Assembly: GCA_964532995.1 (NCBI GenBank)
Contig: CAZHJN010000003.1
Location: 1 to 63,936, forward strand
Origin: an uncultured bacterium
GTDB lineage: Bacteria > Ratteibacteria > UBA8468 > B48-G9 > DTJG01
Reading direction: 5' to 3'
Length of the DNA stretch: 63,936 nucleotides
Within the stretch, counting starts at the first letter, position 1; each line of letters begins with the position of its first letter. Shown piece after piece: positions 15,558 to 63,936 of the stretch. Below the pieces are notes generated by a model that saw only the letters and a program-made list of their open reading frames with translations, was not told the DNA's origin and searched no databases. The position numbers and the translations under genes were made by a program.

Positions 15558-15561
15558 TTTC

Positions 15562-19279: not shown

Positions 19280-19297
19280 GATTTTCCCTTGTGTGAC

Positions 19298-19373
19298 TGG
19301 CGCCCCCAGCCGGAATCGAACCGGCGCTACCACCTTGAAAGAGTGGTGACCTAGGCCGCTAGTCGATAGGGGC
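19298..19373 (-). tRNA. tRNA-Glu (anticodon UUC), CCA encoded
   Basis: The reverse complement folds as a cloverleaf: acceptor GCCCCTA/TGGGGGC, D stem GACT/GGTC, anticodon stem CCACT/GGTGG with loop CT-TTC-AA, T arm GCCGG-TTCGATT-CCGGC, discriminator G and CCA. Confidence 0.9.
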
Positions 19374-22512: not shown

Positions 22513-22566
22513 ACGATTTTTCCCTGTTTATTATGTTATGGTAATTTTTCAAGTTTAGCAAATAAT

Positions 22567-46777: not shown

Positions 46778-47071
46778 TTATTCTCCAAGAGGATAAAAAT
46801 TTATGTTCTCTCTTATTACAACAATGTTTCCATCCTCTTCAAGGATCCTGCGGATAGAAAGAAAAACAGCCTCTGCCTTACAGACCTCTGAATCAACACA
46901 GGCAACACCCATCAAACTCCTCTGCCATTTATCATGATAATCAAGTTCAGCAATTGAAACATTAAAACGTTTCCTGGATTTTGTAAGTACAGACTGCAAT
47001 ACATTTCTCTTATCTTTCAGATTCTGTGCATTGGGTATATGTAATTCAATTTTCCATACGCCAACCACCAT
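46778..47071 (-). CDS. DUF503 (YlxP-like) family protein
   Basis: 97 aa. The VGVWKIELHIPNAQNLKDKRNVLQSV pattern is typical of DUF503. It abuts the valS start. Confidence 0.7.
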   Translation of the reverse strand: MVVGVWKIELHIPNAQNLKDKRNVLQSVLTKSRKRFNVSIAELDYHDKWQRSLMGVACVDSEVCKAEAVFLSIRRILEEDGNIVVIRENINFYPLGE

Positions 47072-47138
47072 TTTTTCCTCCGGGAATTTTGATGAAGCAA
47101 TATCCAGATAAACTTTCGAAAAACTGAATTCCGTATAA

Positions 47139-49724: not shown

Positions 49725-50723
49725 TCACCGAATAATCAGCATTGCATCCCCATAAGAATAAAATCTATAGTCGTTTTCCAATGCTGACAGATAAGCCTTT
49801 TCTATTAATTCTGTTCCACCAAAGGCACACACCATGTAAAGATGAGTGGATCCCGGTAGATGAAAATTTGTAATCATCATGTTAATACAATTAAATTTAT
49901 AACCCGGTTTTATGAAAAGATCTGTCAATTCTTTTTTGGGAACAACCCTGCCATTTTCAAAGGCACTTTCAATTGCCCTTGTGGTACTTGTCCCAACACT
50001 GCAAATATTGTTCCTTGATTTCAGAGCAGTATTAATAACTTCTGCTGTATTTTGGGGCACATCAAAAAATTCCGGAGGAACTCTGTTTTCATTTTGCCTC
50101 AGTATCCGAAAAGAGGCCCATCCTATATGAAGTGTCAGAAAAGCAATGGTCACACCTTCCCTCTTCAATTTTTGCAGAAGGTTTTCAGTAAAATGAAGTC
50201 CAGCAGTGGGCGCTGCAACTGAACCATATTTTTTTGCATAAACAGTCTGGTAATCAAAATTATCTCTGGCATCAGATAATCTTTTCATATATGGTGGTAT
50301 CGGCATCTTACCCATATTGAATAGTATATGATCTGATGCACCAAAATTTACTGCCCAGGAACCATCTGCATTTTTTCCAATCACAACCGCCGAAATCTTA
50401 TCAAAAATCAATATGGTTTTATCCTTAACCCTTCCACGAATAAGTGTATCCCAGATTCCCTCCTCTTTTTTTTTCAAAAGCAACACCTCAACCGCACCGC
50501 CTGAAGTTTTTTTTCCATATAACCTGGCGGGAATGACTTTTGTGTTATTAAGAAGCAATACATCCTTCTCGGAAAAAAAACCCACAATATCCTTAAACCT
50601 CATATGCTGAATATCACCCTTTGAACAATCCACAAGCATAAGTTTTGCATCCTCACGATTCTCAAGGGGACGAATGGCAATTCTTTCCGGTGGAACTGTA
50701 TAATGGAAAACTTCTCTTTTCAT
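49725..50723 (-). CDS. queA: S-adenosylmethionine:tRNA ribosyltransferase-isomerase
   Basis: PPERIA, GSVAAPTAGLHFT, VGTSTTRAIES and NFHLPGST motifs; 332 aa. Confidence 0.9.
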   Translation of the reverse strand: MKREVFHYTVPPERIAIRPLENREDAKLMLVDCSKGDIQHMRFKDIVGFFSEKDVLLLNNTKVIPARLYGKKTSGGAVEVLLLKKKEEGIWDTLIRGRVKDKTILIFDKISAVVIGKNADGSWAVNFGASDHILFNMGKMPIPPYMKRLSDARDNFDYQTVYAKKYGSVAAPTAGLHFTENLLQKLKREGVTIAFLTLHIGWASFRILRQNENRVPPEFFDVPQNTAEVINTALKSRNNICSVGTSTTRAIESAFENGRVVPKKELTDLFIKPGYKFNCINMMITNFHLPGSTHLYMVCAFGGTELIEKAYLSALENDYRFYSYGDAMLIIR

Positions 50724-52390
50724 GATTTTTGGAAAAGTAAAATTCTGGGATGGGTATAAAGCATATCATGGATGGTCCATTTTTCATCAAAATATATAGG
50801 ACCAAAATGGGCATAGACTGTAAATACTTTTTCAAGTATAAATCCTTTTTTTGGGATCAACTCTATTTTTTGGGCCATCTCACGGTTTCTGTTTCCTGAT
50901 GTGAGAAAATACTGCAATTCACCAATAATCAAATAGCTTCCAGAAGGAACCATTTCAAGATCTTCCTCAGGAATTACATATATTGAATATTTCAATGGAT
51001 TCACCGGAGGTACCTCAAATATCCATGGGTCCTTTGTAAAAACAATTCGGGTATGTTGCGGTATATTATCATCCACATATTCTGCCGCAATAAGCCTGAT
51101 ATCTTTTCTCGTCATCAGAGATGAATATGCTGATGATTTAATTGAAGGACCTATTAACAAAAACAATGACAGTAAAATAGCACAGTAACGAATGTATTTA
51201 TATTTGATTTTAAAAAAATCATCGAATAAAGAACCCGCACTCAAACATAAGAAGGGAAGCAAAGGCAAATAATACCTTGTGTATTTAAAACCACCGGTTA
51301 TCATCAAAGGCGCCATAGATAAAACAATACAGGTAAGAATTAATCTGTCTGACAGATTTCTTCTTCTTGCCTGTACAAAAATTCCAGGTATAAAAAAAAC
51401 CACCATTAGAAAAATACCGACCCATAATGATGATAAAAGTTCATAAGGGAAAGATAGAAGATTTGAAAAAACCCCTGCGCCTATACCTCTGGCACCCGCC
51501 TGATAGAAGATGTCTCTTTTAAATTCGTGAAAAGAAACCAGGGAATACGGTGTTGTAATAAAAAATCCTGCGAAGAAAATCAAAAAGGAAACGATTGTCA
51601 TCCTTAAAAATCTGGAAAAAGAATCATTAAAAACATTTCTGTAAACAAATGGCAAAATAAATATTATAATTCCCACAGGATATTTTGTTCCGGATGCAAT
51701 CCCAGCAAACAAAGCAGACAAAAAAGACAAATAAATTTTTCTTTTCTGGAGAAAAAATACAGCAAAATAAAATGAAACAATCATCCAGAAAACCGCAGGA
51801 ATATCAACTGTCATATAATGGCTGTTGATCACATAAAGTGGAGAAAAAGCAAAAGCAGCTAATGCAAACAGAGAACCATTTTTGCCGCACAGCACTTTTC
51901 CGATAGATAAAAATACAATAAGTCCCAGGGTTGCTATTATAACAGTTAAGATCCTTCCGGCAAGATATATTTTTGCCATTTCCTCTGGCGATTCATAATA
52001 ATAACTGATATCAGATGTAAGATTAATAATCCCTGATATTGAAAGAACCTTCAGTGTTATTGCCACAAGATATATCTGAGCAGACGGATATTCAAAATAA
52101 TGAGGATTGAAATCAAATTTCTCCACATTCATTGCAGCTATACTTTTAAGAATGATCTGCTCATCTGGATGAAAAGATCTGATAGGGTTAAAAATTGAGC
52201 GCGGTAATTTTTCATGTTGGCGGTCTTTTGAAATCTGCCAGGAACTTTTAACATATTCATCTGAAACCTCAATCTGTTGCGGTAAAAACATTGATATACT
52301 TGCATCAGGAAGCCCCCATTTTATACCTGTAATATAGAGGATAAATGCAAACAAAATTATCATTGTTGATAGGAAGAAGTGCTTTTTCAT
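50720..52390 (-). CDS. GT-C fold membrane glycosyltransferase A (PMT_2/ArnT-like, polyprenyl-phosphate-sugar dependent)
   Basis: About 13 TM helices with an acidic first-loop motif (SFHPDEQ) and a C-terminal soluble domain. The start is trimmed to ATG 52390 (MKKHFF; ATGA overlap with the upstream GT2 stop). Confidence 0.7.
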   Translation of the reverse strand: MKKHFFLSTMIILFAFILYITGIKWGLPDASISMFLPQQIEVSDEYVKSSWQISKDRQHEKLPRSIFNPIRSFHPDEQIILKSIAAMNVEKFDFNPHYFEYPSAQIYLVAITLKVLSISGIINLTSDISYYYESPEEMAKIYLAGRILTVIIATLGLIVFLSIGKVLCGKNGSLFALAAFAFSPLYVINSHYMTVDIPAVFWMIVSFYFAVFFLQKRKIYLSFLSALFAGIASGTKYPVGIIIFILPFVYRNVFNDSFSRFLRMTIVSFLIFFAGFFITTPYSLVSFHEFKRDIFYQAGARGIGAGVFSNLLSFPYELLSSLWVGIFLMVVFFIPGIFVQARRRNLSDRLILTCIVLSMAPLMITGGFKYTRYYLPLLPFLCLSAGSLFDDFFKIKYKYIRYCAILLSLFLLIGPSIKSSAYSSLMTRKDIRLIAAEYVDDNIPQHTRIVFTKDPWIFEVPPVNPLKYSIYVIPEEDLEMVPSGSYLIIGELQYFLTSGNRNREMAQKIELIPKKGFILEKVFTVYAHFGPIYFDEKWTIHDMLYTHPRILLFQKS

Positions 52391-53100
52391 TTTCCAGCCC
52401 TGATTTTTATAAGGTCCAAAAAGCATTTTGAGGAATCCCTGAAAAAACGAACGGTTGTGCTTGGATCATTAGCCCATATCACACCCACTTCTTTAATCCT
52501 GTATTCAGCCAGATAAGCCTTGTAAATTACCTCGACATCAAAACTGAAACCCTTATGATTAAGTGAAGCAAAAAGTTTCTTTGCAATTTCCCTCTTAAAC
52601 AATTTGAAACCGCACTGGGTATCTGAAAAAGGCATTCCAAGAATGATCCTGACAAGAGCCTGAAAAACTCTTCCGGATACTCTTCTATGAAATGGTTGCT
52701 TTTTCGTTATCAAAGAATCTCTTGTTCTTCTTGATCCAATAACAATGTCGTATCCTTGCTGAACAAGCGGCAGAAATTTTTCTATTTCTGATACAGGCGT
52801 GGACAGATCTGCATCTGAAAACAAAATCAGCTCGCCGGTTGAAGCCATAACACCCTGACGAACAGCTTCGCCCTTTCCCATATTTTTCTCGTAAGAAACA
52901 AGCTTTACACATGGTTGCTTTTCTGCAATTTCAGCCACAATTTCTGCGGTTCTATCAGAGCTTCCGTCATTAACAACAATAATTTCAAAAGTAAGACCCT
53001 TTTTTTTTATTAAAAAATTCTGTATCTCGGCAACAGTTCTCTCTATATTTTTTTCTTCATTATAAGCAGGAATTACCACAGACAAATTCAACCTATCCAT
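52387..53100 (-). CDS. GT2 glycosyltransferase, Dpm1/ArnC/ALG5-like polyprenyl-phosphate sugar synthase type
   Basis: VVIPAYNEEKNI, VNDGSSDRT, SDADLS (DxD) and QCGFKLF motifs. 237 aa, no TM segment. Confidence 0.8.
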   Translation of the reverse strand: MDRLNLSVVIPAYNEEKNIERTVAEIQNFLIKKKGLTFEIIVVNDGSSDRTAEIVAEIAEKQPCVKLVSYEKNMGKGEAVRQGVMASTGELILFSDADLSTPVSEIEKFLPLVQQGYDIVIGSRRTRDSLITKKQPFHRRVSGRVFQALVRIILGMPFSDTQCGFKLFKREIAKKLFASLNHKGFSFDVEVIYKAYLAEYRIKEVGVIWANDPSTTVRFFRDSSKCFLDLIKIRAGK

Positions 53101-53798
53101 TTTTTAACCAGTGTCCTGAAATAAAGTTTTACATACGGCAGAGTTTTTAAAATTCGGAATTTTGATTTACCTTTTTTTCTACCCAGCCATACTGTTGGAA
53201 CATCACATATTCTATAACCTGAAAAATAAAAATTCAATGCTGCCTCCATGGAAACAGCAAAACCCTTTTCCCTGAGATTTATCTTCTGGAGCAATTCACG
53301 CCTGTATAATTTAAAAGCATTGGAGATATCCCTTGTCGGTATACCGGCAATATAATAAAGAGAAAGACAAACAAACTTTGAAAAAAAATTCTGAAACAAA
53401 GGTCCACCAATCTTTGCTCCACCTTTCATATAACGACAGCCACAGACTAAATCATATCCTGAATTTGCTTTTTCAAGCATAATATTGATGGTTTTTGGTT
53501 CATCGCATCCATCAGCCATCACAAAAAGTATAAATTCGCCTGTTGCGTTTCTGAAACCAGTCATCAATGCATTTGCAAAACCAGGCTCATCGGTATTTTT
53601 AACAAGTCTTATTTCACAAAATTGACATTTTATATTTTGAACAAGTTCCGCAGTATGATCTGTGGAATGGTCATCAACCACAATGATTTCTGTATCTGAA
53701 CGGTCTACATGCTTTAACAAACTTGCAATAGTTGAAACTATGTTTTCCTCTTCATTTCTTGCCGGGATAACTATACTTAAAAATTTTTCACCAGTCAT
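53088..53798 (-). CDS. GT2 glycosyltransferase, Dpm1-like
   Basis: IVIPARNEEENI, VDDHSTDHT and MADGCDE motifs; 236 aa. Confidence 0.8.
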   Translation of the reverse strand: MTGEKFLSIVIPARNEEENIVSTIASLLKHVDRSDTEIIVVDDHSTDHTAELVQNIKCQFCEIRLVKNTDEPGFANALMTGFRNATGEFILFVMADGCDEPKTINIMLEKANSGYDLVCGCRYMKGGAKIGGPLFQNFFSKFVCLSLYYIAGIPTRDISNAFKLYRRELLQKINLREKGFAVSMEAALNFYFSGYRICDVPTVWLGRKKGKSKFRILKTLPYVKLYFRTLVKKWIG

Positions 53799-54922
53799 AC
53801 AAGCTTTTTGTTTTTAAGTTCTTTTAATGCATATGAAAAACCATCTTTTGCATAAGCATTTTTGCTCCACTCAACAAGTTTTAACAGTCCATCCTCCAGG
53901 GATACACATGGTGTAAAACCGAGAAATTTCTTTATTTTTTGGATATCAGCAAAACAATGTCTGACATCTCCTTTTCTGAATCTGTATGTCACCAGTGGAG
54001 ATGGTTTCTTATTCAAAAGACTTATCAAAATCCTTGCTATTTCCAGAATGCTCACAGGTTTTCCTGTTCCAACATTGAAAATCTCATAATTTGCTTTTTC
54101 GTTTTCAAGAGCCAGAACACAGGCCCTGGCAACATCCTGAATCCAGATGAAATCTCTTGTCTGAAAACCATCTTCAAAAATTACAGGGGGTTTGTTGTTT
54201 TTTATCCTGCTGATAAAAATTGCTGTTACTCCTGTGTACGGATTTGAAAGGGACTGATTCGGTCCATAGACATTAAAAAACCTCAAAGAAGAAACGGGTA
54301 TCCCGTATGTCTGACCGATAAGTAAACTCATTTCCTCCTGTTCTTTCTTTGAAATTGCATATATTGAATTGGCATTGAGTGGAGTATTTTCATGCGTGGG
54401 AACAGAAGAAACAGTATTTTTGCAATACGGACATTTTATTTCCCAGTATGAATGTCTTTTTATGACCTTCCCCTCAGACAGTTTTCTCAAATCAGGTTTA
54501 AAAACACCGCAATTTTTGCATTTTGCCAGTCCTTCTCCGTAGCTGCTCATAGAAGCAGCCACAACTATTTTTTTTACCTTATGTTTACTGTTAACAAGAA
54601 TATCAAGAAGATTTGCGGTACCACAAATATTTGTTTCAACATATTTTGAAATCTGATACTGAGATTGTCCGACACCAACAGATGCAGCAAAATGAAAAAT
54701 ATAATCCTGTCCAATGATTGCATCTTTCAATTTAGCGTAATCCCTTACATCTCCTTTAATAAATTTTACCTTCCTGTTTAAATAATCAGGAATCTTTCCA
54801 AAAGGATGAACCTGTGGATCAAGATTATCAAACACAGTAACGCGATAACCTTTTTCAACAAGCACATCACACAAGTTGCTTCCTATAAAACCTGCTCCAC
54901 CTGTAACAAGGATTTTTTTCAT
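53795..54922 (-). CDS. Extended-SDR NAD-dependent sugar epimerase/dehydratase with internal CxxC...CxxC insertion
   Basis: VTGGAGFIGSNL Rossmann motif, catalytic Ser region AASMSSYGE and YAISK (Tyr-x3-Lys). An insertion of about 40 aa separates them and contains CKNC (aa 135-138) and CPYC (aa 164-167). Confidence 0.75.
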   Translation of the reverse strand: MKKILVTGGAGFIGSNLCDVLVEKGYRVTVFDNLDPQVHPFGKIPDYLNRKVKFIKGDVRDYAKLKDAIIGQDYIFHFAASVGVGQSQYQISKYVETNICGTANLLDILVNSKHKVKKIVVAASMSSYGEGLAKCKNCGVFKPDLRKLSEGKVIKRHSYWEIKCPYCKNTVSSVPTHENTPLNANSIYAISKKEQEEMSLLIGQTYGIPVSSLRFFNVYGPNQSLSNPYTGVTAIFISRIKNNKPPVIFEDGFQTRDFIWIQDVARACVLALENEKANYEIFNVGTGKPVSILEIARILISLLNKKPSPLVTYRFRKGDVRHCFADIQKIKKFLGFTPCVSLEDGLLKLVEWSKNAYAKDGFSYALKELKNKKLV

Positions 54923-55857
54923 TTTTTCTTTTTCAGATAACTGTCAAGTGTTTTTCTTAAACCATCTTCAAGATTTATCGAGGGTGTCCAGCCAAGAAGC
55001 TTTTTTGCAAGACTGATATCCGGTCTTCTTTTTCTTGGGTCATCAGGAACAGGTGGAAGAAATTCAAAAGCAAGATTCAATCCTGTGATCTGATTGATCT
55101 TTTTTGCCAGTTCAATTATCGTAAATTCACCCGGATTACCAATATTAACAGGCATATGATAGTCTGTCTCCACAAGAAGTAAAAGACCCCTTATAAGGTC
55201 ATCAACATAACAGAAACTTCTTGTCTGATTTCCATCACCAAATATTGTTAATGGTTTTTTCGAAATCACCTGCGAAATAAAATTTGGTATTACCCTTCCA
55301 TCGTCAAGCCTCATCCTGGGGCCATATGTATTAAAAATTCTTGGCAGATAAGTCTTTATCTTATAAAGCCTGTGATAAGCCATAACAAGAGCCTCAGCAT
55401 ATCTTTTACCTTCATCGTACATTGATCTTGGTCCTATTGGATTAACATTTCCCCAGTAATCTTCTTTCTGAGGACTTTCAAGAGGGTCTCCATACACCTC
55501 AGATGTCGAAGTGAAGAGAAATTTTGCTTTAAGCTTCACCGCAAGATTTAAACATTTTTCTGTACCCGTTGAATTTACCCTCAATGTCTCAACAGGAAAT
55601 TTAACATAGTCTTTTGGAGAAGCAGGACTTGCAAGATGAAAAATAATCTCTGGATAAAAAGGCAATTTTTCAATATCAAAAGTAATAATGTCTGCTTCTA
55701 TGAAATGAAAATTTTCTTTATCGAGAAGATGTCTAATATTTTCTCTGGATCCTGTTAAAAAATTATCCATACATATTACACTGTCTCCCCTTTTTATCAA
55801 AGCGTCGCAAAGATGACTTCCAAGAAATCCTGCTCCGCCTGTAACAAAAGTTTTCAT
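54919..55857 (-). CDS. uxs: UDP-glucuronate decarboxylase (UDP-xylose synthase)
   Basis: VTGGAGFLGSHLCD, TSTSEVYGDP and the UXS-specific YWGNVNPIGPRSMYDEGKRYAE; 312 aa. Confidence 0.85.
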   Translation of the reverse strand: MKTFVTGGAGFLGSHLCDALIKRGDSVICMDNFLTGSRENIRHLLDKENFHFIEADIITFDIEKLPFYPEIIFHLASPASPKDYVKFPVETLRVNSTGTEKCLNLAVKLKAKFLFTSTSEVYGDPLESPQKEDYWGNVNPIGPRSMYDEGKRYAEALVMAYHRLYKIKTYLPRIFNTYGPRMRLDDGRVIPNFISQVISKKPLTIFGDGNQTRSFCYVDDLIRGLLLLVETDYHMPVNIGNPGEFTIIELAKKINQITGLNLAFEFLPPVPDDPRKRRPDISLAKKLLGWTPSINLEDGLRKTLDSYLKKKK

Positions 55858-57191
55858 TTTTTCTCCATTTTTCTGCCGATTCCACAGCAGATAAAACCTG
55901 ATTTTTTAAGTTTATCCAGATTAAGAAAATTTCTTCCATCTATAATATAAGGCATTTTCATCAGATGCAAAATAGTTTCAAAATCAATGTTTTTGAATTC
56001 ATCCCATTCTGTCGCAAATATTATAAGATGAGCATCACGCGCAACATCATAAGCATTTTCACAAAATTCCACATCAGATAAAACTTTCTTTGCGTTTTCC
56101 ATTGCCCTGGGATCATAGCATTTCAATATACATCCTTCTTCAAGCAGTAAGTTTATTATCCCTATTGCAGGGCTTTCTCTTATATCATCTGTTCCTGGTT
56201 TGAAAGCCAGTCCTAAAACACCAACGCTCTTACCTCTAAGATTCCAGAGGAATTCTCTTACTTTTTTTATAACAATGAGTTTTTGCTGTTTATTTATTTT
56301 TTCCACCTCTTTCAACAAACCAAAATCACAACCGAGTTCCTCTGCGATTGAAATAAATGCTTTCACATCTTTTGGGAAACATGAACCGCCATAGCCTATA
56401 CCTGCTTTCAAAAAGGATTTACCAATTCTTGAATCTGTGCCCATACCCTCAGCAATCATATCAATATCAGCCCCAACCTTTTCACATATCTGCGAAATCG
56501 CGTTTATGTATGAAATTTTCATAGCCAGAAAAGAATTTGAAGCATGCTTGATAATCTCGGCGCTTTTTACATCAGTAAAAATGATAGGAACCTTCAATGG
56601 TCTGTAGATTTCCTTAAATATTTTTTTCGCCCTTTCATTTTCAACCCCAACCACAATTCTATCAGGTTTAAAGAAATCCTTGATTGCACTGCCCTCCCTT
56701 AAAAATTCAGGATTTGCGGCAACATCAAAATCAACTCCTGTGGGTGCAATAAGCTCTATGGTTCTTTTAACCCACTGGCCTGTAAGAACAGGAACCGTAC
56801 TTTTTTCCACAACCAGTTTATAATTATGTTTTCTATCTCTTTTACTTTTTATTTTTTTCAAAGCCTTTGCTATTTGAACTGATGCCTGCTCAACATAAGA
56901 AAGATCTGCTCTGCCATCCAAACTTGCCGGGGTTCCAACACAGATAAAAATTATTTCGGCTGATTTAACAAGATCATCTACTGACTTAACAAAAAGTAAC
57001 TTTTTATTTTTTAACCCGCTTTCAACAATCTGCTCAAGACCCGGCTCATAAAATGGTATAATGCCTTTTTTAAGTTTTTCTATCTTTTCACTATCGCTAT
57101 CAACGCAAAAAACAATATTACCAAGTTTTGCAAAACAGGCTCCTGTTACAAGACCGACATGACCGGTGCCTATTATTCCTATTTTTTTCAT
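55854..57191 (-). CDS. ugd: UDP-glucose 6-dehydrogenase
   Basis: GIIGTGHVGLVTGACFA, NPEFLREG and catalytic GGSCFPKD; 445 aa. Confidence 0.9.
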   Translation of the reverse strand: MKKIGIIGTGHVGLVTGACFAKLGNIVFCVDSDSEKIEKLKKGIIPFYEPGLEQIVESGLKNKKLLFVKSVDDLVKSAEIIFICVGTPASLDGRADLSYVEQASVQIAKALKKIKSKRDRKHNYKLVVEKSTVPVLTGQWVKRTIELIAPTGVDFDVAANPEFLREGSAIKDFFKPDRIVVGVENERAKKIFKEIYRPLKVPIIFTDVKSAEIIKHASNSFLAMKISYINAISQICEKVGADIDMIAEGMGTDSRIGKSFLKAGIGYGGSCFPKDVKAFISIAEELGCDFGLLKEVEKINKQQKLIVIKKVREFLWNLRGKSVGVLGLAFKPGTDDIRESPAIGIINLLLEEGCILKCYDPRAMENAKKVLSDVEFCENAYDVARDAHLIIFATEWDEFKNIDFETILHLMKMPYIIDGRNFLNLDKLKKSGFICCGIGRKMEKK

Positions 57192-58198
57192 CTGTTTTCC
57201 TCAAGCCATCTTACAAGTTTTCTTATCCCCTGTTCCTTTCCTATCGATGGTTTCCAGCCTGTGATTTTATTAAACATCGTATTGTCACTTATGAATACTT
57301 TCTGGTCCCCTGGTCGCCAGGAATTAAACTCATATTTAATTTTTACTCCGATTAATGTTTCAAGATAATTTACAAGTTCTAAAAGAGAAAATGAATTATT
57401 GATTCCTCCACCTATATTAAAAACTTTCCCAGAACACTTTTCCTTATTCTGCAAAACTTTCATATAAGCTGCAACAAGATCATCAACATGAAGAATATCT
57501 CTAACCTGTTTTCCATTTCCATAAATTGTAATTCTTTTCCCTTCCAATGCCCTGGTAATAAAATGAACAACCCATCCCTGATCCACGTTTCCATGCTGAA
57601 ACTGTCCGTATATGCAGGACTGTCTGAATACAACGGTATTCATTTTATAAATCCTTGAATAATCCTTGACATATTGATCACCGCTGCCTTTTGAACAGCC
57701 ATAAGGTGAATAAAAATCAAGCGGTTCACTTTCATCTATTCCATTTCGTTTATCAGAAAGAATGTACCTTGTTTTAAGTTCCTTTAATTTAAGATGTGAT
57801 AGTTCACCATAGACCTTGTTTGTTGAAGCATATAAAAATAAAGCATTTTTTGAGTTTTTCCTGCATGCTTCAAGAAGATAAAATGTGCCAAGTGCATTTA
57901 TTTCAAAATCTTCTGCTGGATTTTCAACCGAACATGTTACTGCCACCTGTGCTGCAAGGTGAAAAACAGCATTTAATCCTTTTGTTATTTTTTTCAGCAG
58001 GGGGTAGTTTCTGACATCTCCATTTATAAATTGCAAATTCTTGCAATTCATATCAAGAAGATATTTAAGATTTTTCTCTGTTCCTTTACGGGAAAGATTA
58101 TCCAGAACTATTACTTGATTATCTTTATCTCTGACAAGATTCAAAACAAGATTAGTACCAATGAACCCGGCACCGCCGGTAACCAGAATTTTATTCAT
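57188..58198 (-). CDS. Extended-SDR NAD-dependent epimerase (CDP-paratose 2-epimerase-like)
   Basis: VTGGAGFIGTNL, STNKVYG and SPYGCSKGSGDQYV motifs; 336 aa. Confidence 0.75.
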   Translation of the reverse strand: MNKILVTGGAGFIGTNLVLNLVRDKDNQVIVLDNLSRKGTEKNLKYLLDMNCKNLQFINGDVRNYPLLKKITKGLNAVFHLAAQVAVTCSVENPAEDFEINALGTFYLLEACRKNSKNALFLYASTNKVYGELSHLKLKELKTRYILSDKRNGIDESEPLDFYSPYGCSKGSGDQYVKDYSRIYKMNTVVFRQSCIYGQFQHGNVDQGWVVHFITRALEGKRITIYGNGKQVRDILHVDDLVAAYMKVLQNKEKCSGKVFNIGGGINNSFSLLELVNYLETLIGVKIKYEFNSWRPGDQKVFISDNTMFNKITGWKPSIGKEQGIRKLVRWLEENR

Positions 58199-58221
58199 TT
58201 TTTCTCCACTCTATTGTATTA

Positions 58222-59079
58222 TTATACTTTTATTTTCTGATTAATATGAAATTTTTTTCTTGCGACTATAATAGTGGAATCTGAACCAAAAATAATTCTT
58301 AACATCAACTGCGCAATAAAAACAAATGTTGATTTTAATGAAAATGACAACAGAAATGCAGGCATATCGTTAACTCTTAGCACAGATAAAACATCAAAAC
58401 CATTTGTTGAAATAAGGTTCCTGATGGAAACAGGAGTAAAATGAAAAATTTGTGCGGGTATATGAAGCAAACTTCTGGTTCTGCCAGCAAATCTGAACAT
58501 ATTCAACAATCTGAAAAAAAAAGGGGAATGATATGGCGTTTTTATAATCAATATACCACCATCCTTCAGTACCCTGCGAATTTCTTTCAAATATTCCTGT
58601 GGCGTTTCCAGATGAGCAATAACATCAAAAACAGTAACCACATCAAAAAAGCCATCTGGAAATCCTGCATTCTTAAAATCACAGCAAATTACATTATGAC
58701 CCATTTTCTTACAGTAATCTGAAGCAAAAATAGAAGTATCAATACCAAAACAATGCCATCCCTTTTCTGTCATAACTTCCATCAAAAATCCTGTACCACA
58801 ACCAACATCAAGTAAGCTGCCCGGCTCCAAATTTGATAGAATTTCAATCCTTCCAAGCAACTTCTTCAGATATCTTTTTCTGCGAATCCTATTTTTGATA
58901 TACCAGCGATTAAAATATTTTTCATCATAAAGCGATGGAACCAAAGACGCAGGACAGAAAATAACACCACAACTGATGCATCTTCTAGCAGTATAATTTT
59001 TTTCCTTCCATATTAATTCTGTCTTTTCGGCACAGAGCGGGCAGCAATCTTTCAAAATCTGTATCTTATCAGAGTCCAT
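58222..59079 (-). CDS. Class I SAM-dependent methyltransferase with N-terminal Zn-ribbon
   Basis: CPLC...CISCG at the N-terminus and LLDVGCGTGFL motif I; 285 aa. Confidence 0.75.
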   Translation of the reverse strand: MDSDKIQILKDCCPLCAEKTELIWKEKNYTARRCISCGVIFCPASLVPSLYDEKYFNRWYIKNRIRRKRYLKKLLGRIEILSNLEPGSLLDVGCGTGFLMEVMTEKGWHCFGIDTSIFASDYCKKMGHNVICCDFKNAGFPDGFFDVVTVFDVIAHLETPQEYLKEIRRVLKDGGILIIKTPYHSPFFFRLLNMFRFAGRTRSLLHIPAQIFHFTPVSIRNLISTNGFDVLSVLRVNDMPAFLLSFSLKSTFVFIAQLMLRIIFGSDSTIIVARKKFHINQKIKV

Positions 59080-59732
59080 ATGGCAATCAATCCATCTTTC
59101 CAGTTAATTTTTTTGCCTTCTCGTTTTGTTCTTGGCCGGTATTTTATTGGAAGCTCAAGTATTTTTATTCGCCTTTTTGCTATCTTTGCCGTTACTTCCG
59201 GACAGAATTCAAACCCTCTGCAATGAAGATCAAGAGATTTTAAAAGATCGCTTTTGAACATTTTATAACAGGTTGGTTCATCTGTAATTGATGTGCCATA
59301 GAGCATATTTGTTAAAAACGACAGGAATCTTCCACCTGCATAGAAAGAAAAAGAGGATTTTGGATTTCTACCGAGAATTCTTGAACCATAAACAACCTCT
59401 GATTTTCCTTCTTCAAGGGGCCTGATAAGTTCGAGAAAATCCATTGGATCATATTCAAGGTCTGCATCCTGAATAACCACATATTCTCCTTTCACTTCCG
59501 GTATTGCTCTGCGTATCGCAAAACCTTTACCCATATTTACAGACTGAAAAATAATTCTGATGCCGGGTGTTTTTTCTTTTTCCATACTGGCAAGAATCTC
59601 TTTTGTTCCATCTGTGCTTCCGTCATCAACTATAATGATCTCCTTCTCAATGGGTACCGCAAGCACTTTTTCAATTACTTTCTTTACGGTGGCCTTTTCA
59701 TTATATACAGGTATGATAACTGATAGTTTCAC
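59052..59732 (-). CDS. GT2 glycosyltransferase, Dpm1-like
   Basis: VIIPVYNEKATV, VDDGSTDGT and QDADLEYDP motifs; 226 aa. Confidence 0.8.
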   Translation of the reverse strand: MKLSVIIPVYNEKATVKKVIEKVLAVPIEKEIIIVDDGSTDGTKEILASMEKEKTPGIRIIFQSVNMGKGFAIRRAIPEVKGEYVVIQDADLEYDPMDFLELIRPLEEGKSEVVYGSRILGRNPKSSFSFYAGGRFLSFLTNMLYGTSITDEPTCYKMFKSDLLKSLDLHCRGFEFCPEVTAKIAKRRIKILELPIKYRPRTKREGKKINWKDGLIAIWTLIRYRF

Positions 59733-60910
59733 GATTTATTAATTCCCTTCAGCTGGAAAATCAGCCACAGAAAACCGTTTGAAGCAAACATAATAACAAA
59801 TGGCTCAATGGCAACCCTGTATCTTATTGATGCAAGAAAAATCATATGAAAAATTGTAAAAAAAACAATGGTCCAGACAAGAAAGAGTGTTTTCAAACTA
59901 TGTTTTGTTATAAATAACCCCAGAATAAAAAATGGAAGCAACAGTCCAAAGCTCAACACACTTAATGCACGATAAAAATTTGTACTGTATTCAGCTGCAT
60001 TCGGTACAATATTCCAGAATCTGAAAAACTTTTTCCCGAGTAATCTTAAAAATCTTTGGGGATCTTTTTTTATACATTCAAATGTGAGGCTATAGAAAAC
60101 TCTGTCTCTCTGCGCCTCATCAACCTGCCAGACACCTTCAGGGAAATATCTGCATGGACCGCCTTCTGAAAAAGGATTGTTCCCCTCCCAGAAAACTGCT
60201 CCGCCCATTGTCGTACCTGGAACGAATTTTCCGATAGCAATATAGTTTCTTATAATCCATGGTGTCAGAACCAAAATAAAACCTGCAAAAGCAAACAATA
60301 TCTTTTTTAATCTGATTATATTGTTATCTGCAGAAAACAAAATGAATAATAAACAGAATGGAAAAAATAATTCCATTGTCGGTCTGCACAAACCCGCAAA
60401 ACCAGAAGTAGCACCAAAAACCAAGCCATAAGATGGAAAAACTTTTGGCTCCACAAGAGTGAACATTGTAAGAGCACATAAAACAACAAGAAAAATAAAA
60501 AATGTTTCAGTAAGCAAAAATCCTGTATAAAAAATGAAAAATGGATAAATTGCTGAAAGAAAACATGATAGAAGAGCAACCCTCTCACTGAAGATTTTTT
60601 TGCTGATTAAATAAATAAACACACATGTTATCGCAGAAAGAAATGATTGAACAATCCTGATGCCAGTAATTGTAAATCCTGTCTTAACCAGTAATGCAAT
60701 AAATAAAGGGTAAAGTGGTGGTCTGTAAGCTTTTAAGTTTTCAGCAACCATCAAACCTTTGCCAGAAATAAAATTATCAACGATTTTCCAGTATTCATAC
60801 TCATCATCAAAATAAAATCTTTCCTCCAGATAAAAAGCAAAACCAATCCTGAAAGTGAAAGCAATGAAAAAAATTAATAAAATTACCTTCCAAAAATTTT
60901 TTCGCGCCAT
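59729..60910 (-). CDS. GT-C fold membrane glycosyltransferase B (PMT_2/ArnT-like)
   Basis: 393 aa with about 11 TM helices. The first-loop acidic motif is FDDEYEYW, and RPPLYPLF follows. It is a paralog of the gene at 62933-63936. Confidence 0.7.
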   Translation of the reverse strand: MARKNFWKVILLIFFIAFTFRIGFAFYLEERFYFDDEYEYWKIVDNFISGKGLMVAENLKAYRPPLYPLFIALLVKTGFTITGIRIVQSFLSAITCVFIYLISKKIFSERVALLSCFLSAIYPFFIFYTGFLLTETFFIFLVVLCALTMFTLVEPKVFPSYGLVFGATSGFAGLCRPTMELFFPFCLLFILFSADNNIIRLKKILFAFAGFILVLTPWIIRNYIAIGKFVPGTTMGGAVFWEGNNPFSEGGPCRYFPEGVWQVDEAQRDRVFYSLTFECIKKDPQRFLRLLGKKFFRFWNIVPNAAEYSTNFYRALSVLSFGLLLPFFILGLFITKHSLKTLFLVWTIVFFTIFHMIFLASIRYRVAIEPFVIMFASNGFLWLIFQLKGINKS

Positions 60911-61563
60911 ATCTTTATTCTAAAGATAAAAAAGGAATTGTGTCCGTAAACACCCACTCTGGGTAATGCATATCTATCAAACTCACCTTTCCAGCCTGTA
61001 ACAACAGCACCAAGATAACCGGCATTTTTAACCATCTCTCTGATTTTTGCGTTCTGTTTTCCATAGGGATAGCAGAAAAAAAGAATCTTTCTTCCTATGT
61101 TTTTTTGAATGAACTTTTCTGATTCGAAAATTTCATTCCACGCCTGTTTTCTATCAAGAGATGTTAAGTCCGGATGACTGAGTGAATGAGAGCCAAAATC
61201 AATATCAGCTCTCAGCATTTCCTGGACTTCTTTCCATTTTAAGTACCTGTCCTTTTCTTTATCATTATATTTTCTGTGAAGTTTTTCTGTTCCTATGAAA
61301 TGTGCTGTCAAAAATATGGTCGGTTTTATTCCGTATTTCTTCATGACAGGAAATGCAAACATAAAATTATCTGCAAAGCCATCATCAAAGGTAATACAAA
61401 AGTTTTTTCTGCTATTTGATAGGTCTTCAAAATATTCATAAAGAGAAACAGGTTTAAGGCCCTTTTTGAGCAAAAAATTAATCTGCCTCTCGAACATTGC
61501 AGGAGAAACACTCAAAGCATCTTCTGGATACCAGGGATTAATTCTATGATATGCAAGTATCAT
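60883..61563 (-). CDS. Polysaccharide deacetylase (CE4/NodB homology domain; ArnD-like)
   Basis: TFDDGFADN (Asp-Asp metal/catalytic motif) and GSHSLSHPDL (His-x4-His); 226 aa. Confidence 0.8.
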   Translation of the reverse strand: MILAYHRINPWYPEDALSVSPAMFERQINFLLKKGLKPVSLYEYFEDLSNSRKNFCITFDDGFADNFMFAFPVMKKYGIKPTIFLTAHFIGTEKLHRKYNDKEKDRYLKWKEVQEMLRADIDFGSHSLSHPDLTSLDRKQAWNEIFESEKFIQKNIGRKILFFCYPYGKQNAKIREMVKNAGYLGAVVTGWKGEFDRYALPRVGVYGHNSFFIFRIKIWREKIFGR

Positions 61564-62285
61564 ATTTTTAACCTTTTAAATCTGTATGAAATGATGAGCC
61601 ATATCATTTTTAATCCCAAAAAGAATGCCTTTTTTAAACTTCCTGTTACCGAAGATTTACCCACCCTTGGTCTGTAATTAACAGGTATTTCAATAAACTT
61701 TATTCCATTTTTTGCAATAAGAATCGTGAGTTCCGGACCAAAATGTTGAGTACCTATTGTAAAATACGGTCTGACTTTTTCATAAAGATTTCTTTTTATC
61801 AATCTCATGGTACAGCCAACATCAGTGAGAGTTGTTGTGTTATACAAAAATTCAAGAAGTTTTGCAACAGCCCAGTTTCCCCATTTTAGAAAAGCACCCA
61901 TATTCGCACCCTGCCATATCAATTCTCTTGTGGTTCTTGTTCCAATCACATAATCGAAATCATCAGAATAAGCCAGCAATTTAATAACATCTTTCCCGGA
62001 AAATGTTCCATCAGGTTCAGAAATTATCAATAGTTCCCCTGTGGCTTCTTCAAGACCTTTCCATATAGCATAGCCATACCCCTGTCTTTTTTCATAAACA
62101 AGTCTGGCTTTTGTTTTCTTCACCTCATCATCGGTCCCGGCTGCAGCATTATTGTTAACAACGATTATTTCGTCCACAAAACCAGAAGCAAAAAAATCCT
62201 CAATCGCTTCTTTTATTGAATCCCTTTCATTATAAGTGGGAAAAATTACACTTATTTTTTTATCTCTCCACATTCTTTTCTCCAA
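61560..62285 (-). CDS. GT2 glycosyltransferase, Dpm1/ArnC-like
   Basis: VIFPTYNERDSI and VVNNNAAAGTDDE. ISEPDG stands in place of DxD. The C-terminal amphipathic/hydrophobic tail is FFLGLKMIWLIISY; 241 aa. Confidence 0.75.
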   Translation of the reverse strand: MEKRMWRDKKISVIFPTYNERDSIKEAIEDFFASGFVDEIIVVNNNAAAGTDDEVKKTKARLVYEKRQGYGYAIWKGLEEATGELLIISEPDGTFSGKDVIKLLAYSDDFDYVIGTRTTRELIWQGANMGAFLKWGNWAVAKLLEFLYNTTTLTDVGCTMRLIKRNLYEKVRPYFTIGTQHFGPELTILIAKNGIKFIEIPVNYRPRVGKSSVTGSLKKAFFLGLKMIWLIISYRFKRLKI

Positions 62286-62979
62286 TAATTACATTGTGAG
62301 AACAAATAAGATTCAAAAGAGGAATTTTTTCAATACCTCTCTCCAGGAAAGAGAATAATCTCATAAGAAAAATAGGAATGAAATCTGGCATAAATCCTTT
62401 TTTCTCATAAACAATTGTTTTGATTCCGGCATCTTCAAGTAATTGTATCAAATGCCCGGAACTGTGTATTTGTTCTTTCCCCTGATCCTGGGGAACCCGT
62501 TTCATCAAAAATAACCAGTAAGGATTTATTCTGTTATGGTCCCATATTACAACTCGTCCATTTGGTTTGAGAACACGGCTTATTTCATGCATAACGCTTT
62601 TCAACAATTTACCTCTGATATGATGCATTGTTGCAACACATACAACTCCATCAAAACTCTCTGACAAAAATGGCATTCTTTCCGCTGAAGAACAGACTAT
62701 TCTACCGGGCATTCTTTTTGCTGCAATTTCCACCATCTTTTTTGAAATATCAATTCCATAAACATCGTAGCCAGCATTTTTAAGATTCAAAACAAGTAAA
62801 CCCGTTCCACAACCAATATCAAGAATTTTTTTTCTGTTTTTAAAGTGCCTCACAATATATTCTGTACGCATTTTAATATAGTAATCCCTTATGTGCGGAC
62901 GAAAAATATCATCATAAATCTCTGCAACTGAATCAAATTCTTCTGGCATTTTTTCTTTTTTCCATAAAAAACAAGACAC
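62260..62979 (-). CDS. Class I SAM-dependent methyltransferase
   Basis: ILDIGCGTGLL motif I and FDGVVCVATMHH. 239 aa (alternative start ATG 62949, MPEEFD). Confidence 0.75.
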   Translation of the reverse strand: MSCFLWKKEKMPEEFDSVAEIYDDIFRPHIRDYYIKMRTEYIVRHFKNRKKILDIGCGTGLLVLNLKNAGYDVYGIDISKKMVEIAAKRMPGRIVCSSAERMPFLSESFDGVVCVATMHHIRGKLLKSVMHEISRVLKPNGRVVIWDHNRINPYWLFLMKRVPQDQGKEQIHSSGHLIQLLEDAGIKTIVYEKKGFMPDFIPIFLMRLFSFLERGIEKIPLLNLICSHNVIIGEKNVER

Positions 62980-63936
62980 CGTAGATTGAGAAAATAAGAA
63001 CGAAAGGCATTATTGGAAATCTGTATCTGATTGCCGTGCGAATCAAAATATTGCCCAACATGAAAACAATTATAAAACTGTGCAAAATAAAAAAATGTCG
63101 CCATTTTGGTAAAGATAGCAAAAAACCAATAAACCCAAGAATTATCAAAGGAGACTCAACCAGCAAACTCAATAAAACATGCAGTTTGCTATAGGGTTTA
63201 CCAGGTCCTGAAATGGTATGTGGGAAAAATCTCCAGAATCTCACAAATCTATCAATGACAAGTCTTAAATAAATACCCGGATTCCTCTTTATAAAAGAAA
63301 ACGCCATACCATAAAACTTTCGATCTATTTCAATCTCTGATAAACCTTTGAAGTCTTCTAAATTTTCCGCATGATAGAATCCACTCGGTTGATATAAAGA
63401 GTATTCATTATTTGCTATATAGAAAACAACTCCTCCCTCTGTAGAGGTAAGTACAAATGTATGGTGAATGATATAATTTCTTACAATCCATGGAACAATA
63501 ATAAGACAACAACCCGCACAAAATAACAAAATATTTTTATAAAAAGATATTTTTCTTGAAATAAAAAAATATGCTAAAAGAACAGGTATAAAAAGTAAAG
63601 CGGTAGGTCTGGTTAGAAAGAGTAATCCAGATACAAAACCCGCGAAAAAGAAAGACGATATATGTTTGCTTTTAACAGCAAACACCGACAGTAACGCAAG
63701 AACAACAGTCAAAAAAGCAGTCAAAGTTTCAGGAGCAAGATAACCTGTCCAGAAGATAGCAACTGGGTACAGCGCGAAACAAGTCGCACAAATCAGAGCA
63801 GTTTTTCTGTCAATGAGCAACACACATAAAAAATACAAGATAATAGATGTCAGAGAACTCACGAAAGCCAAAGCGATTTTCGCTGCAAGATAACTGTGCC
63901 CGAATAAAAAATAAACAATTGCCAGGAAAAAAGGAA
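62933..63936 (-). CDS. GT-C fold membrane glycosyltransferase C (PMT_2/ArnT-like), 5'-truncated by window edge
   Basis: The minus-strand frame stays open from 63871 to the window end (…PFFLAIVYFLFGHSYLAAKIA-LAFVSS…), so the track's TTG start is an artefact. It is polytopic and collinear with protein B (VPWIVRNYI vs TPWIIRNYI; IRYRFPIMPFV vs IRYRVAIEPFV). Confidence 0.7.
   Translation of the reverse strand, partial: PFFLAIVYFLFGHSYLAAKIALAFVSSLTSIILYFLCVLLIDRKTALICATCFALYPVAIFWTGYLAPETLTAFLTVVLALLSVFAVKSKHISSFFFAGFVSGLLFLTRPTALLFIPVLLAYFFISRKISFYKNILLFCAGCCLIIVPWIVRNYIIHHTFVLTSTEGGVVFYIANNEYSLYQPSGFYHAENLEDFKGLSEIEIDRKFYGMAFSFIKRNPGIYLRLVIDRFVRFWRFFPHTISGPGKPYSKLHVLLSLLVESPLIILGFIGFLLSLPKWRHFFILHSFIIVFMLGNILIRTAIRYRFPIMPFVLIFSIYGVLFFMEKRKNARRI

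Follow-up and report, generated by a model that had tools for sequence, protein, structure and literature searches.

A putative multiplied polyprenyl-phosphate-monosaccharide glycosylation operon in an uncultured bacterium of the candidate phylum Ratteibacteria

Single sugars carried on polyprenyl phosphates are used for envelope decoration by several bacterial systems, such as the Gtr systems of Shigella and Salmonella, the Arn pathway, which adds 4-amino-4-deoxy-L-arabinose (L-Ara4N) to lipid A, and the related Lgm system of Bordetella. Three-component periplasmic glycosylation systems are defined in part by a flippase, as one of their three components (PMC11127046). In GtrA/GtrB/Gtr* and in the GT136 pentofuranose system, a GT2 enzyme loads undecaprenyl phosphate (Und-P), and a periplasmic GT-C enzyme modifies a glycan that has been made separately (PMC11127046). 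In the Arn pathway (ArnC/ArnD/ArnT with Ugd/ArnA) and in FlmF2/NaxD/FlmK of Francisella (PMC4402001), a deacylation of the lipid-linked amino sugar stands between loading and transfer. In mycobacteria, many GT-Cs consume lipid-linked monosaccharides, and a GalNAc donor ends as GalN on the polymer (PMC3485146). Here, an operon at 50720–63936 on the minus strand of a 63,936-nucleotide stretch of DNA (contig CAZHJN010000003.1, positions 1 to 63,936, referred to as the window) from an uncultured bacterium of the Ratteibacteria is described and compared with these systems. The operon probably specifies a multiplied system for glycosylation from polyprenyl-phosphate monosaccharides, of the Gtr, ArnC-D-T or PpgS-Rv3779 type, used for the parallel extracytoplasmic decoration of a conserved envelope glycoconjugate. 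The number of different sugars added outside the cytoplasm is probably four or five.

The operon consists of 14 consecutive open reading frames (ORFs) that run from 63936 down to 50720 (Table 1). Direct reading of the junctions showed ATGA stop/start overlaps at queA/GTC1 (50720–50723), GTC1/GT2a (52387–52390), GT2b/SDR-Zn (53795), SDR-Zn/UXS (54919), UXS/Ugd (55854), Ugd/SDR-2epi (57188) and CE4/GT2d (61560), and a GTGA overlap at GT2c/GTC2 (59729). The remaining junctions overlap by 13–28 nt, apart from a single intergenic gap. Pfam and NCBIfam profile searches were performed on the operon proteins and PDB sequence searches on selected ones. The Pfam content is three PMT_2 proteins, four Glycos_transf_2 proteins (226–241 amino acids, aa), a three-domain Ugd, three extended short-chain dehydrogenases/reductases (SDRs), one Polysacc_deac_1 protein (CE4) and two class-I methyltransferases (Methyltransf_11/23/25). 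The original prediction had described the same chain of 14 genes, with three GT-Cs, four soluble Dpm1/ArnC-like GT2s, Ugd, a UDP-glucuronate decarboxylase, two further SDRs, a CE4 deacetylase and two S-adenosylmethionine (SAM) methyltransferases. Its coordinates and gene count proved correct when the ORFs and junctions were re-read, and the profile, PDB and fold searches described below bear out its gene content. It had also reported that Wzx, Wzy, Wzz, an ABC exporter, WaaL, an initiating phosphoglycosyltransferase (PGT), an ArnB-type aminotransferase and a formyltransferase (ArnA) domain are missing, which holds for the window operon and extends to the complete operons of relatives. No equivalog-level NCBIfam assignment was obtained for any GT2, GT-C, CE4 or methyltransferase, so that sugar specificities are not assignable, and the sequence alone identifies neither the acceptor nor the sugars.

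Table 1. Genes of the minus-strand operon in 5' to 3' order, with its intergenic gap and the gene that follows it
Feature	Position	Strand	Description
GTC3	62933..63936	-	PMT_2 E 1.5e-12; short GT-C, GTC2 paralogue (32% identity); cut by the window end
MT2	62260..62949	-	SAM methyltransferase; Methyltransf_11 and Methyltransf_25 E 1e-24 to 1e-26
GT2d	61560..62273	-	Glycos_transf_2 E 3e-18; AglJ model 77 bits; Dol-P-hexose transferase model 59 bits
CE4	60883..61563	-	metal-dependent deacetylase (by homology); Polysacc_deac_1 E 9e-28; directly 5' of GTC2
GTC2	59729..60910	-	393 aa, about 10 transmembrane segments; PMT_2 E 5.7e-17; centre of the conserved core
GT2c	59052..59732	-	226 aa; DPM1/AglJ-like; AglJ model 120 bits
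MT1	58222..59079	-	SAM methyltransferase; Methyltransf_11 and Methyltransf_23 E ~1e-21
Intergenic gap	58199..58221	-	sole gap of the operon, 23 nt; junction reading
SDR-2epi	57188..58198	-	putative nucleotide-sugar epimerase, CDP-tyvelose 2-epimerase-like
Ugd	55854..57191	-	UDP-glucose 6-dehydrogenase (by homology); all three UDPG_MGDP_dh domains
UXS	54919..55857	-	UDP-glucuronate decarboxylase (UDP-xylose synthase), by homology
SDR-Zn	53795..54922	-	GalE-like NDP-sugar 4-epimerase candidate
GT2b	53088..53798	-	Glycos_transf_2 E 1.7e-32; DPM1-like; 35% identical to GT2a
GT2a	52387..53100	-	Glycos_transf_2 E 2.6e-36; DPM1/ArnC-like; putative polyprenyl-phosphate sugar synthase
GTC1	50720..52390	-	556 aa; GT-C fold, C-terminal periplasmic alpha/beta domain; last operon gene
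queA	49725..50723	-	Queuosine_synth E 4e-109; directly downstream, ATGA shared with GTC1; housekeeping

By homology, the four GT2s are predicted to be polyprenyl-phosphate glycosyltransferases of the DPM1/Ppm1-D2/PpgS type that lack a membrane anchor. PDB searches covered GT2a, GT2c and GT2d, and the best matches of all three were the dolichyl-phosphate (Dol-P) mannose synthase of Pyrococcus, PfDPMS (5mlz), and ArnC (9hwj, 9bhc, 8vxh), with GtrB (5ekp) also matched by GT2a and GT2c. GT2a, which has a DAD motif at residue 96, matches PfDPMS at 3.8e-24, ahead of GtrB 5ekp and ArnC 9hwj. Residues 1–207 of GT2c align to residues 23–230 of PfDPMS and residues 2–206 to ArnC, and its DADL motif is conserved. 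The most likely start of GT2d is the ATG at 62273. GT2b carries a variant metal motif, DGCD, in place of a DxD match, and aligns over nearly its full length to the PgfS, AglJ, ArnC and PpgS models of NCBIfam, with every score under the cut-off. In NCBIfam, the only models with near-complete alignments to all four GT2s are those for AglJ, PpgS, Dol-P-hexose transferase, ArnC and PgfS; scores against the ArnC model PRK10714 are 26–86 bits (cut-off 529). The polymer-synthase models align only to the N-terminal ~100 residues, which form the nucleotide-binding part. No transmembrane segment was detected in any of the four GT2s by a Kyte-Doolittle hydropathy scan and no QxxRW motif is present in any of them, so they are not processive synthases. 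Processive GT2 polysaccharide synthases, with a multi-transmembrane channel, had been named in the original prediction as a finding that would speak against it, and this candidate was rejected. Hydrophobic-moment scoring of the GT2 C-termini gave no separation from control proteins.

The GT-Cs were compared at the level of predicted structure. GTC1 scores 35 bits against PMT_2, and its start at 52390 is favoured by orthologue lengths of 550–561 aa over the 568 aa of a public gene call. Its AlphaFold2 model, based on an alignment of 40 homologues, has a mean predicted local distance difference test score (pLDDT) of 92.3, and Foldseek matched it to ALG12/ALG9, STT3, ArnT and Pmt4 at probability 1.0 with query-normalised TM-scores of 0.41–0.49. 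For GTC2 (pLDDT 93.5, alignment of 60 homologues), the matches were STT3/AglB/PglB at the top, followed by ArnT, ALG9/12 and AftB, with TM-scores of 0.45–0.61. Both models were matched at probability 1.0 only by GT-C enzymes, including PMT and the mycobacterial AftA/AftB/Emb/PimE, and the comparison with ArnT, PMT and PglB suggested by the original prediction thus agrees with a GT-C fold. Residue D36 of GTC2, in 'FYFDDE' just after the first transmembrane segment and within the first periplasmic loop, is invariant in 60 homologues. GTC2 is predicted to be a minimal form of GT-C, with both termini in the cytoplasm. The family of GTC2-type proteins is very large: a search of a library clustered at 50% identity gave 9,199 representatives at E<=1e-30. 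The GTC2-type domain is also found as the N-terminus of very long proteins (1,300–1,770 aa), and tandem-GT-C proteins of 812–875 aa exist as well (P0262, P0264, P0272, P0275, P0293, P0296–P0299, P0314 and P0324 for the two kinds together). The window edge cuts off about 75 residues from the N-terminus of GTC3, and its alignment begins at residue ~74 of its orthologues, the 404–411-aa GT-Cs of five relatives (L004, L007, L012, L013 and L015; 42–64% identity). On their models, GTC1 and GTC2 belong to the GT-C superfamily but have no close relative that has been characterised, and no GT-C of the operon matches an NCBIfam family at E<=1e-5.

PMTs carry an Asp-Glu pair in loop 1 and a luminal MIR domain, and have a length of about 700–800 aa (about 500 aa in bacteria). 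Protein O-glycosylation, in which the GT-Cs would be PMT-like and transfer single sugars to Ser/Thr of secreted or envelope proteins, was weighed as an alternative. All three GT-Cs fall in PMT_2, GTC1 lies over the cut-off of the PMT family (PF02366; 25.1 bits against 22.7), its residues D76-E77 ('HPDE') in the first periplasmic loop are invariant in 40 homologues, and the best NCBIfam match for GT2a and GT2b is PgfS, a model for streptococcal protein glycosylation. PMT_2 is, however, a catch-all clan model, which is all that GTC2 and GTC3 match. MIR domain matches are absent from the GT-Cs, which at 393 and 556 aa are much shorter than PMTs, and PMT structures rank under oligosaccharyltransferase (OST), ALG and ArnT structures in Foldseek. 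The CE4, UXS and epimerase content is also nearer to pathways of glycan or lipid A decoration, and protein O-glycosylation is considered very doubtful.

The top Foldseek matches of GTC2 (STT3/AglB/PglB) also bring an archaeal Agl-like pathway into view. In such a pathway, one GT2 would start a chain on polyprenyl phosphate, other GT2s would extend it in the cytoplasm, a methyltransferase would modify it and one GT-C would transfer the oligosaccharide. AglJ is the best model for GT2c and GT2d, Ugd scores 359 bits against AglM, and methyltransferases are present, like AglP in Haloferax. Nevertheless, the AglJ scores are far under the equivalog cut-off of 325, and all GT2s are small, of the DPM1 type and align to monosaccharide-phosphate synthases. 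Four or five GT-Cs would far exceed the needs of an OST. A WWD/WWDxG motif is absent from GTC1, GTC2 and GTC3 and from the GT-Cs GTC4L and GTC5L of relatives, GTC2 and GTC3 lack a soluble domain at the C-terminus, and no C-terminal domain of the STT3 type is present. An Agl-like pathway is thus highly improbable. An OST (STT3/PglB/AglB) was rejected as a candidate due to the absence of the WWDxG motif in all GT-Cs.

The original prediction had asked for synteny in related genomes, and the same gene order was found in more than 15 species-level genomes that share just 50–70% protein identity. Recurrence at this level of identity shows that the operon order has not arisen by chance. All or part of the order is retained beside queA or yajC in about 30 genomes that carry the label Omnitrophota or Ratteibacteria, and the homologues come from metagenome-assembled genomes labelled Omnitrophota/Omnitrophica, Ratteibacteria or 'bacterium'. 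Three relatives (L012, L013 and L015) share the arrangement of the window and show the complete order: divergent uppP, GT2e, GTC4L (~570 aa), GTC3, MT2, GT2d, CE4, GTC2, GT2c, MT1, SDR-2epi, Ugd, UXS, SDR-Zn, GT2b, GT2a, GTC1 and queA. In six others (L004, L007, L009, L010, L011 and L016), a fifth GT-C of ~580 aa (GTC5L) takes the place of MT2, which is therefore a variable slot; the most likely start of MT2 is the ATG at 62949, and an identical 229-aa gene call is found on a JGI contig. The full operon in relatives thus holds five GT2s and four or five GT-Cs, with its 5' end beside the divergent uppP. In the window organism, GT2e, GTC4L and about 75 residues of GTC3 most likely lie just out of view, as judged from relatives that are 61–68% identical. 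The operon consequently runs past the window, as had been predicted, and into queA at its other end; the predicted multiplication of the pathway also stands, but the estimate of three-fold was too low.

Exact-protein look-ups with GTC2 and MT2 returned two contigs of the same organism (12.7 kb and 2.3 kb), which both end within the operon, and the two nearest relatives likewise stop at GT2d. These independent assemblies all break between GT2d and GTC3, a spot that varies among relatives and holds MT2, the ~580-aa GT-C or nothing.

Adjacency was counted over 49 loci with a GTC2 homologue. CE4 and GTC2 are neighbours in 35 of these, GTC2 and GT2c in 36, GT2c and MT1 in 28, and GT2d and CE4 in 21, and CE4-GTC2-GT2c-MT1 is the most conserved core. 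Several genomes keep only GTC3-(MT2)-GT2d-CE4-GTC2-GT2c-MT1, with MT1 directly followed by yajC, indicating that SDR-2epi-Ugd-UXS-SDR-Zn-GT2b-GT2a-GTC1 is a separable module. The intergenic gap of the window operon lies at the border between this module and the core. A promoter-like sequence, TTCATA-18-TATAAT, is found there at 58250–58221 on the minus strand together with a GGAG Shine-Dalgarno sequence 5' of the SDR-2epi start, and 58199–58250 may be an internal promoter at the module boundary. Apart from this single intergenic site, the promoter and terminator scan is uninformative on the limits of the operon, as promoter-like matches across the region are at chance level (67 against 69.9 expected). 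In addition, natural fusions of GTC2 with a C-terminal GT2c-type synthase were found in P0054 (624 aa), which is located in the same operon context, and in P0120 (665 aa), which has a long Pro/Gly-rich linker. On this Rosetta-stone evidence, GT2c is predicted to be the donor synthase for GTC2, consistent with the predicted cytoplasmic C-terminus of GTC2. A search of CE4 homologues for such fusions found none, and the CE4 subfamily is clade-specific. In three loci (L007, L017 and L032), GT2d and CE4 are separated by the insertion of a SatD-family gene and a gene for a 109-aa protein that has three transmembrane segments and matches no Pfam family.

The position of the operon is fixed, next to queA or, where the last module is absent, next to yajC. 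GTC1 and QueA are adjacent in 10 loci, and queA is a marker of this conserved chromosomal position that stands outside the glycosylation function. The GC content of the operon (0.34–0.36) matches that of the rest of the window and that of the genome (~0.37). GT2d is the most conserved operon protein, with 79–87% identity across genomes in which QueA shows 55–67%. These findings led to the rejection of a horizontally acquired or variable surface-antigen island; the operon is a conserved core-genome operon, the opposite of such an island.

The remaining enzymes would supply and modify the sugars. UXS is strongly predicted to be a UDP-xylose synthase, with an E-value of 7.9e-99 to human UXS1 (4gll, 2b69) over residues 3–309 and the motifs TSEVYGDP and YDEGK. 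Ugd passes only one model, the nucleotide-sugar dehydrogenase subfamily model TIGR03026 (448 bits, cut-off 189.8), and its score against the TuaD model (510 bits) is below the equivalog cut-off of 700. The best PDB matches of SDR-Zn are UDP-hexose, UDP-GlcNAc and UDP-GlcA 4-epimerases (4zrm, 6wjb, 6zl6, 6kv9), and they are split around residues 131–170. At this place (residues ~131–175), SDR-Zn has an insert of ~45 aa with a CxxC...CPxC pattern, of which the four Cys are invariant in 12 orthologues; the insert is therefore probably a zinc ribbon within an SDR sugar epimerase. SDR-Zn has the motifs SMSSYG and YAISK and no dehydratase acid/base pair. SDR-2epi, with an STNKVYG motif, matches two CDP-tyvelose 2-epimerases, 9rl0 (6.2e-104) and 1orr (4e-93). 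CE4 has the motifs TFDD, HSLSH and YPYG, with 6dq3 as its best PDB match (4e-15) and no match to the ArnD model in NCBIfam. Since CE4 has neither a signal peptide nor a transmembrane segment, it is predicted to be cytoplasmic. MT1 has an N-terminal CxxC...CxxC region and one hydrophobic stretch near its C-terminus (residues 242–260).

With activities assigned by homology, the following scheme is proposed for the probable multiplied system. In the cytoplasm, Ugd would form UDP-GlcA and UXS would convert it to UDP-xylose, and the GalE-like SDR-Zn and the tyvelose-epimerase-like SDR-2epi would give further UDP-pentoses or uronic acids. At the inner membrane face, each GT2 (four in the window, five in the full operon) would transfer one sugar from its nucleotide to Und-P. 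CE4 would deacetylate one lipid-linked N-acetyl-hexosamine in an ArnD-like manner, and the methyltransferases would modify a donor or the final product. The lipid-linked sugars would be flipped by a component encoded outside the operon. At the periplasmic face, each GT-C (three in the window, four or five in the full operon) would then transfer its sugar to the envelope glycoconjugate, and the released Und-P would be recycled. Apart from GTC2 with GT2c, the pairings are inferred, and four units can be proposed: GT2e with GTC4L, which lies outside the window and is drawn from relatives; GTC3 with MT2 or the fifth GT-C and GT2d; the core of CE4, GTC2, GT2c and MT1; and the sugar-nucleotide genes with GT2b, GT2a and GTC1.

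The window and the relatives also give indications about the host envelope and the acceptor. Clustered type IV pilus genes with one for a PilQ-type secretin, a prepilin peptidase gene and a complete Tol-Pal system (TolQ/R/A/B, Pal) are present at 140–6036 and 13933–19333, and an MsbA-like ABC protein at 23180–24994, which together indicate that the host has two membranes. In all four close relatives that reach far enough (L009, L012, L013 and L015), a Wzy_C/TPR gene of the O-antigen-ligase family is located ~2.5 kb upstream of the operon. It is the last gene of the divergent uppP-pyrK-pyrD unit on the other strand, and no Wzx or PGT was found alongside it. The Wzy_C proteins near GTC2-type genes have C-terminal TPR repeats and are 596–728 aa long, and one is also found in the distant locus L044 (16072–18258). 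In L044, whose GTC2 is 42% identical, GTC2-MT-GT2c lies amid GT4s, an AsnB-like enzyme, a WecA/MraY-type PGT and the Wzy_C/TPR protein. The nearby Wzy_C/TPR genes and the L044 context suggest that the acceptor is probably a ligase-dependent glycan: the GT-Cs may decorate a glycan built on undecaprenyl diphosphate (Und-PP) and ligated by a Wzy_C-family enzyme, of the lipopolysaccharide (LPS)/lipooligosaccharide type or linked to protein. If the proposed mechanism is right, the acceptor would probably be part of the LPS/lipid A-core glycan or another ligase-dependent glycan; a separate lipoglycan would be unlikely, Ser/Thr of proteins somewhat more so, and any other acceptor very unlikely.

The Wzy_C gene and the joint presence of sugar-nucleotide genes, glycosyltransferases and methyltransferases could also be taken as signs of an ordinary O-antigen, capsule or exopolysaccharide locus, or of GT2s acting as processive polymer synthases. 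The original prediction had named Wzx, Wzy or ligase genes upstream of the window as evidence for such a locus, and the Wzy_C/TPR gene touches this point without changing the outcome, as it stands on the other strand, behind uppP-pyrK-pyrD, and without Wzx or PGT. Wzx, Wzy, Wzz, an ABC exporter (Wzm/Wzt), a PGT, a GT4 and a flippase are all missing from the operon, both in the window and where it is complete in relatives. The GT2s are also short proteins of 226–241 aa with neither a transmembrane helix nor QxxRW, and the operon is a conserved part of the core genome rather than a variable island. This explanation is largely refuted and almost certainly wrong. Although the operon is not itself an O-antigen locus of the ordinary kind, the product of such a locus is probably what it acts on.

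A serial assembly line in the periplasm is an unlikely alternative to parallel decoration. The GT-Cs would act in sequence, with each product as the next acceptor, and build a hetero-oligosaccharide or lipoglycan from the same polyprenyl-phosphate sugars, according to the logic of mycobacterial lipomannan/arabinan synthesis and of ALG3/9/12 extension in the lumen of the endoplasmic reticulum. Many relatives have five synthases and five transferases (5:5), the strong conservation and synteny of the set suggest one fixed product, and the operon is without Leloir GT4-type enzymes. ALG12/ALG9 are among the top Foldseek matches of GTC1, and both modelled GT-Cs match AftA/AftB/Emb/PimE, but these likenesses are generic for the GT-C fold. 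The modules are separable and one slot can hold a GT-C or a methyltransferase, which fits independent decorations better, and the core unit of L044 lies in a classical Und-PP glycan locus.

Several points weigh against the multiplied, parallel system favoured here. Of the components of a three-component system, Und-P-charging GT2s (by homology only) and GT-C-fold transferases are present, and a dedicated flippase is absent: all ORFs of the window operon are accounted for without a small or polytopic transporter, GtrA, SMR, MATE and Wzx are missing from it and from the full operons of relatives, and the sole flippase candidate is the unclassified 109-aa protein with three transmembrane segments of the three loci mentioned above. 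The window-type operon has five synthases and four GT-Cs, so that pairing is not strictly 1:1. All GT2s and GT-Cs score below every curated NCBIfam equivalog cut-off, and the canonical DxD is not at the expected position in GT2b and GT2d. PDB sequence searches with GTC1 and GTC2 gave nothing at E<=1, so both are placed by fold comparison only, and with TM-scores of just 0.41–0.61 no structure is clearly nearest. No obvious source of a CDP-sugar exists in the operon for SDR-2epi. Synteny with Wzy_C is seen only in the closest subclade, as BLAST found no homologue in other loci (<=10 kb on each side). Finally, the hosts are all uncultured, and their gene functions are read from sequence.

The anchorless synthases, the lack of a flippase gene and the GTC2::GT2c fusions make a self-flipping synthase-transferase complex conceivable. 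Each GT2 would bind the GT-C that it serves from the cytoplasmic side, and passage of the polyprenyl-phosphate sugar through the membrane would be a further task of this GT-C or of the whole complex. Four or five such units would build a conserved, clade-specific envelope glycan that contains methylated sugars, pentoses and a free amino sugar. The proposal is regarded as quite unlikely; if true, such complexes would represent extracytoplasmic glycan assembly without a separate flippase.

Other genes in the window were also observed. A sixth DPM1-like GT2 without transmembrane helices (10660–11349), 27% identical to GT2a, adjoins a protein-isoaspartate methyltransferase (10028–10675) and a DedA/VTT-family membrane protein (9398–10027). 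DedA-family proteins have been implicated in Und-P recycling. The genes rmlD-rmlB-rmlA-rmlC for dTDP-rhamnose (19480–23130) are located directly upstream of efp on the same strand, an arrangement that recalls the rhamnosylation systems of elongation factor P (EF-P), although nothing resembling EarP was seen. Between valS and yajC, in the co-directional gene string to which the operon belongs, lie genes for a DUF503 protein and for a LarC-type nickel-insertion protein (46778–48299).

Searches of the literature on Omnitrophota or Ratteibacteria in combination with glycosyltransferase, LPS or outer membrane gave no description of the operon or of the envelope chemistry. If the favoured multiplied system is confirmed, it would be the most multiplied polyprenyl-phosphate-monosaccharide operon known to us within the reach of limited literature searches, with five donor synthases and four or five GT-Cs in one transcription unit, conserved across a candidate phylum that metagenomes alone have revealed. 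A further prediction would be a conserved and unusual envelope glycan with pentose, amino-sugar and methyl-sugar decorations, which bears on the surface biology and cell interactions of these bacteria. The matched synthase/GT-C pairs and natural fusions provide material for studying donor selection by GT-Cs and the transit of lipid-linked monosaccharides without a dedicated flippase gene. The operon is also an entry point to a large uncharacterised family of short (~400 aa) GT-Cs with more than 9,000 sequence clusters at E<=1e-30.

Compared with the known systems, the operon shares with the Gtr and GT136 systems the proposed GT2 loading of Und-P and the presumed modification of a separately made glycan by a periplasmic GT-C, and its GT2s match GtrB by sequence. 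In contrast to the Gtr systems, which have one unit, it has four or five synthase/GT-C units and no flippase gene, its synthases are without the one or two transmembrane segments that anchor GtrB-type enzymes, and a deacetylase, methyltransferases and a UDP-pentose pathway are added. It is also a core-genome operon, whereas the Gtr modules are phage-borne or serotype-specific. The logic of the Arn and Flm systems resembles that of CE4-GTC2-GT2c, and the order of a Ugd-derived sugar nucleotide, GT2 loading on Und-P, deacylation of a lipid-linked amino sugar and GT-C transfer would be shared; ArnC structures are also among the best GT2 matches. Unlike the Arn pathway, the operon has a true UXS in place of the ArnA decarboxylase and no ArnE/F flippase, and its GT-Cs have no match to the ArnT (GT83) family and TM-scores to ArnT of 0.41–0.46. 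A set of Arn orthologues was rejected, as ArnA and ArnB are lacking and model scores are far below the cut-offs.

Mycobacterial Ppm1, PpgS/Rv3632/Rv3779 and the GT-C mannosyl- and arabinosyltransferases (PMC3485146) have in common with the operon synthases without transmembrane segments (Ppm1/D2, PpgS) and polytopic partners. The GT2s are covered almost from end to end by the PpgS model, and in both cases a synthase is fused to a membrane protein, as Mt-Ppm1 D1-D2 in mycobacteria and as GTC2::GT2c here. The fusion partner here is the putative cognate GT-C, however, and an explicit deacetylase is present. Several synthases are clustered with GT-Cs in one operon, and the two-membrane host is unrelated to Actinobacteria. 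In the Agl pathway of Haloferax (AglJ, AglM, AglP, AglD/AglS), a methyltransferase and a Dol-P-sugar-dependent GT-C step are found, features that are also predicted here. The likeness to curated models is best for AglJ with GT2c/GT2d and for AglM with Ugd, but no AglB/STT3-type OST is encoded and the scores are under the equivalog cut-offs. In Rhizobium, RgtC/D and RgtE take part in the addition of galacturonic acid (GalA) to the LPS core and lipid A, and the donor depends on Ugd and a 4-epimerase. The ArnT-like GT-Cs RgtA/B of this system decorate a conserved LPS from a polyprenyl-phosphate uronic-acid donor (PMC4402001). One donor serves four GT-Cs and the genes are dispersed in Rhizobium, whereas five putative donors are clustered with GT-Cs here. 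By defining features, the operon can be assigned to none of the Arn, PMT or OST families as judged from its proteins. The principle on which it would work is already established; its scale and layout are without an earlier description, and what is new relative to the known systems is the number of units, the anchorless synthases, the GT-C::synthase fusions, the lack of a flippase gene and the placement as a core operon in a candidate phylum.

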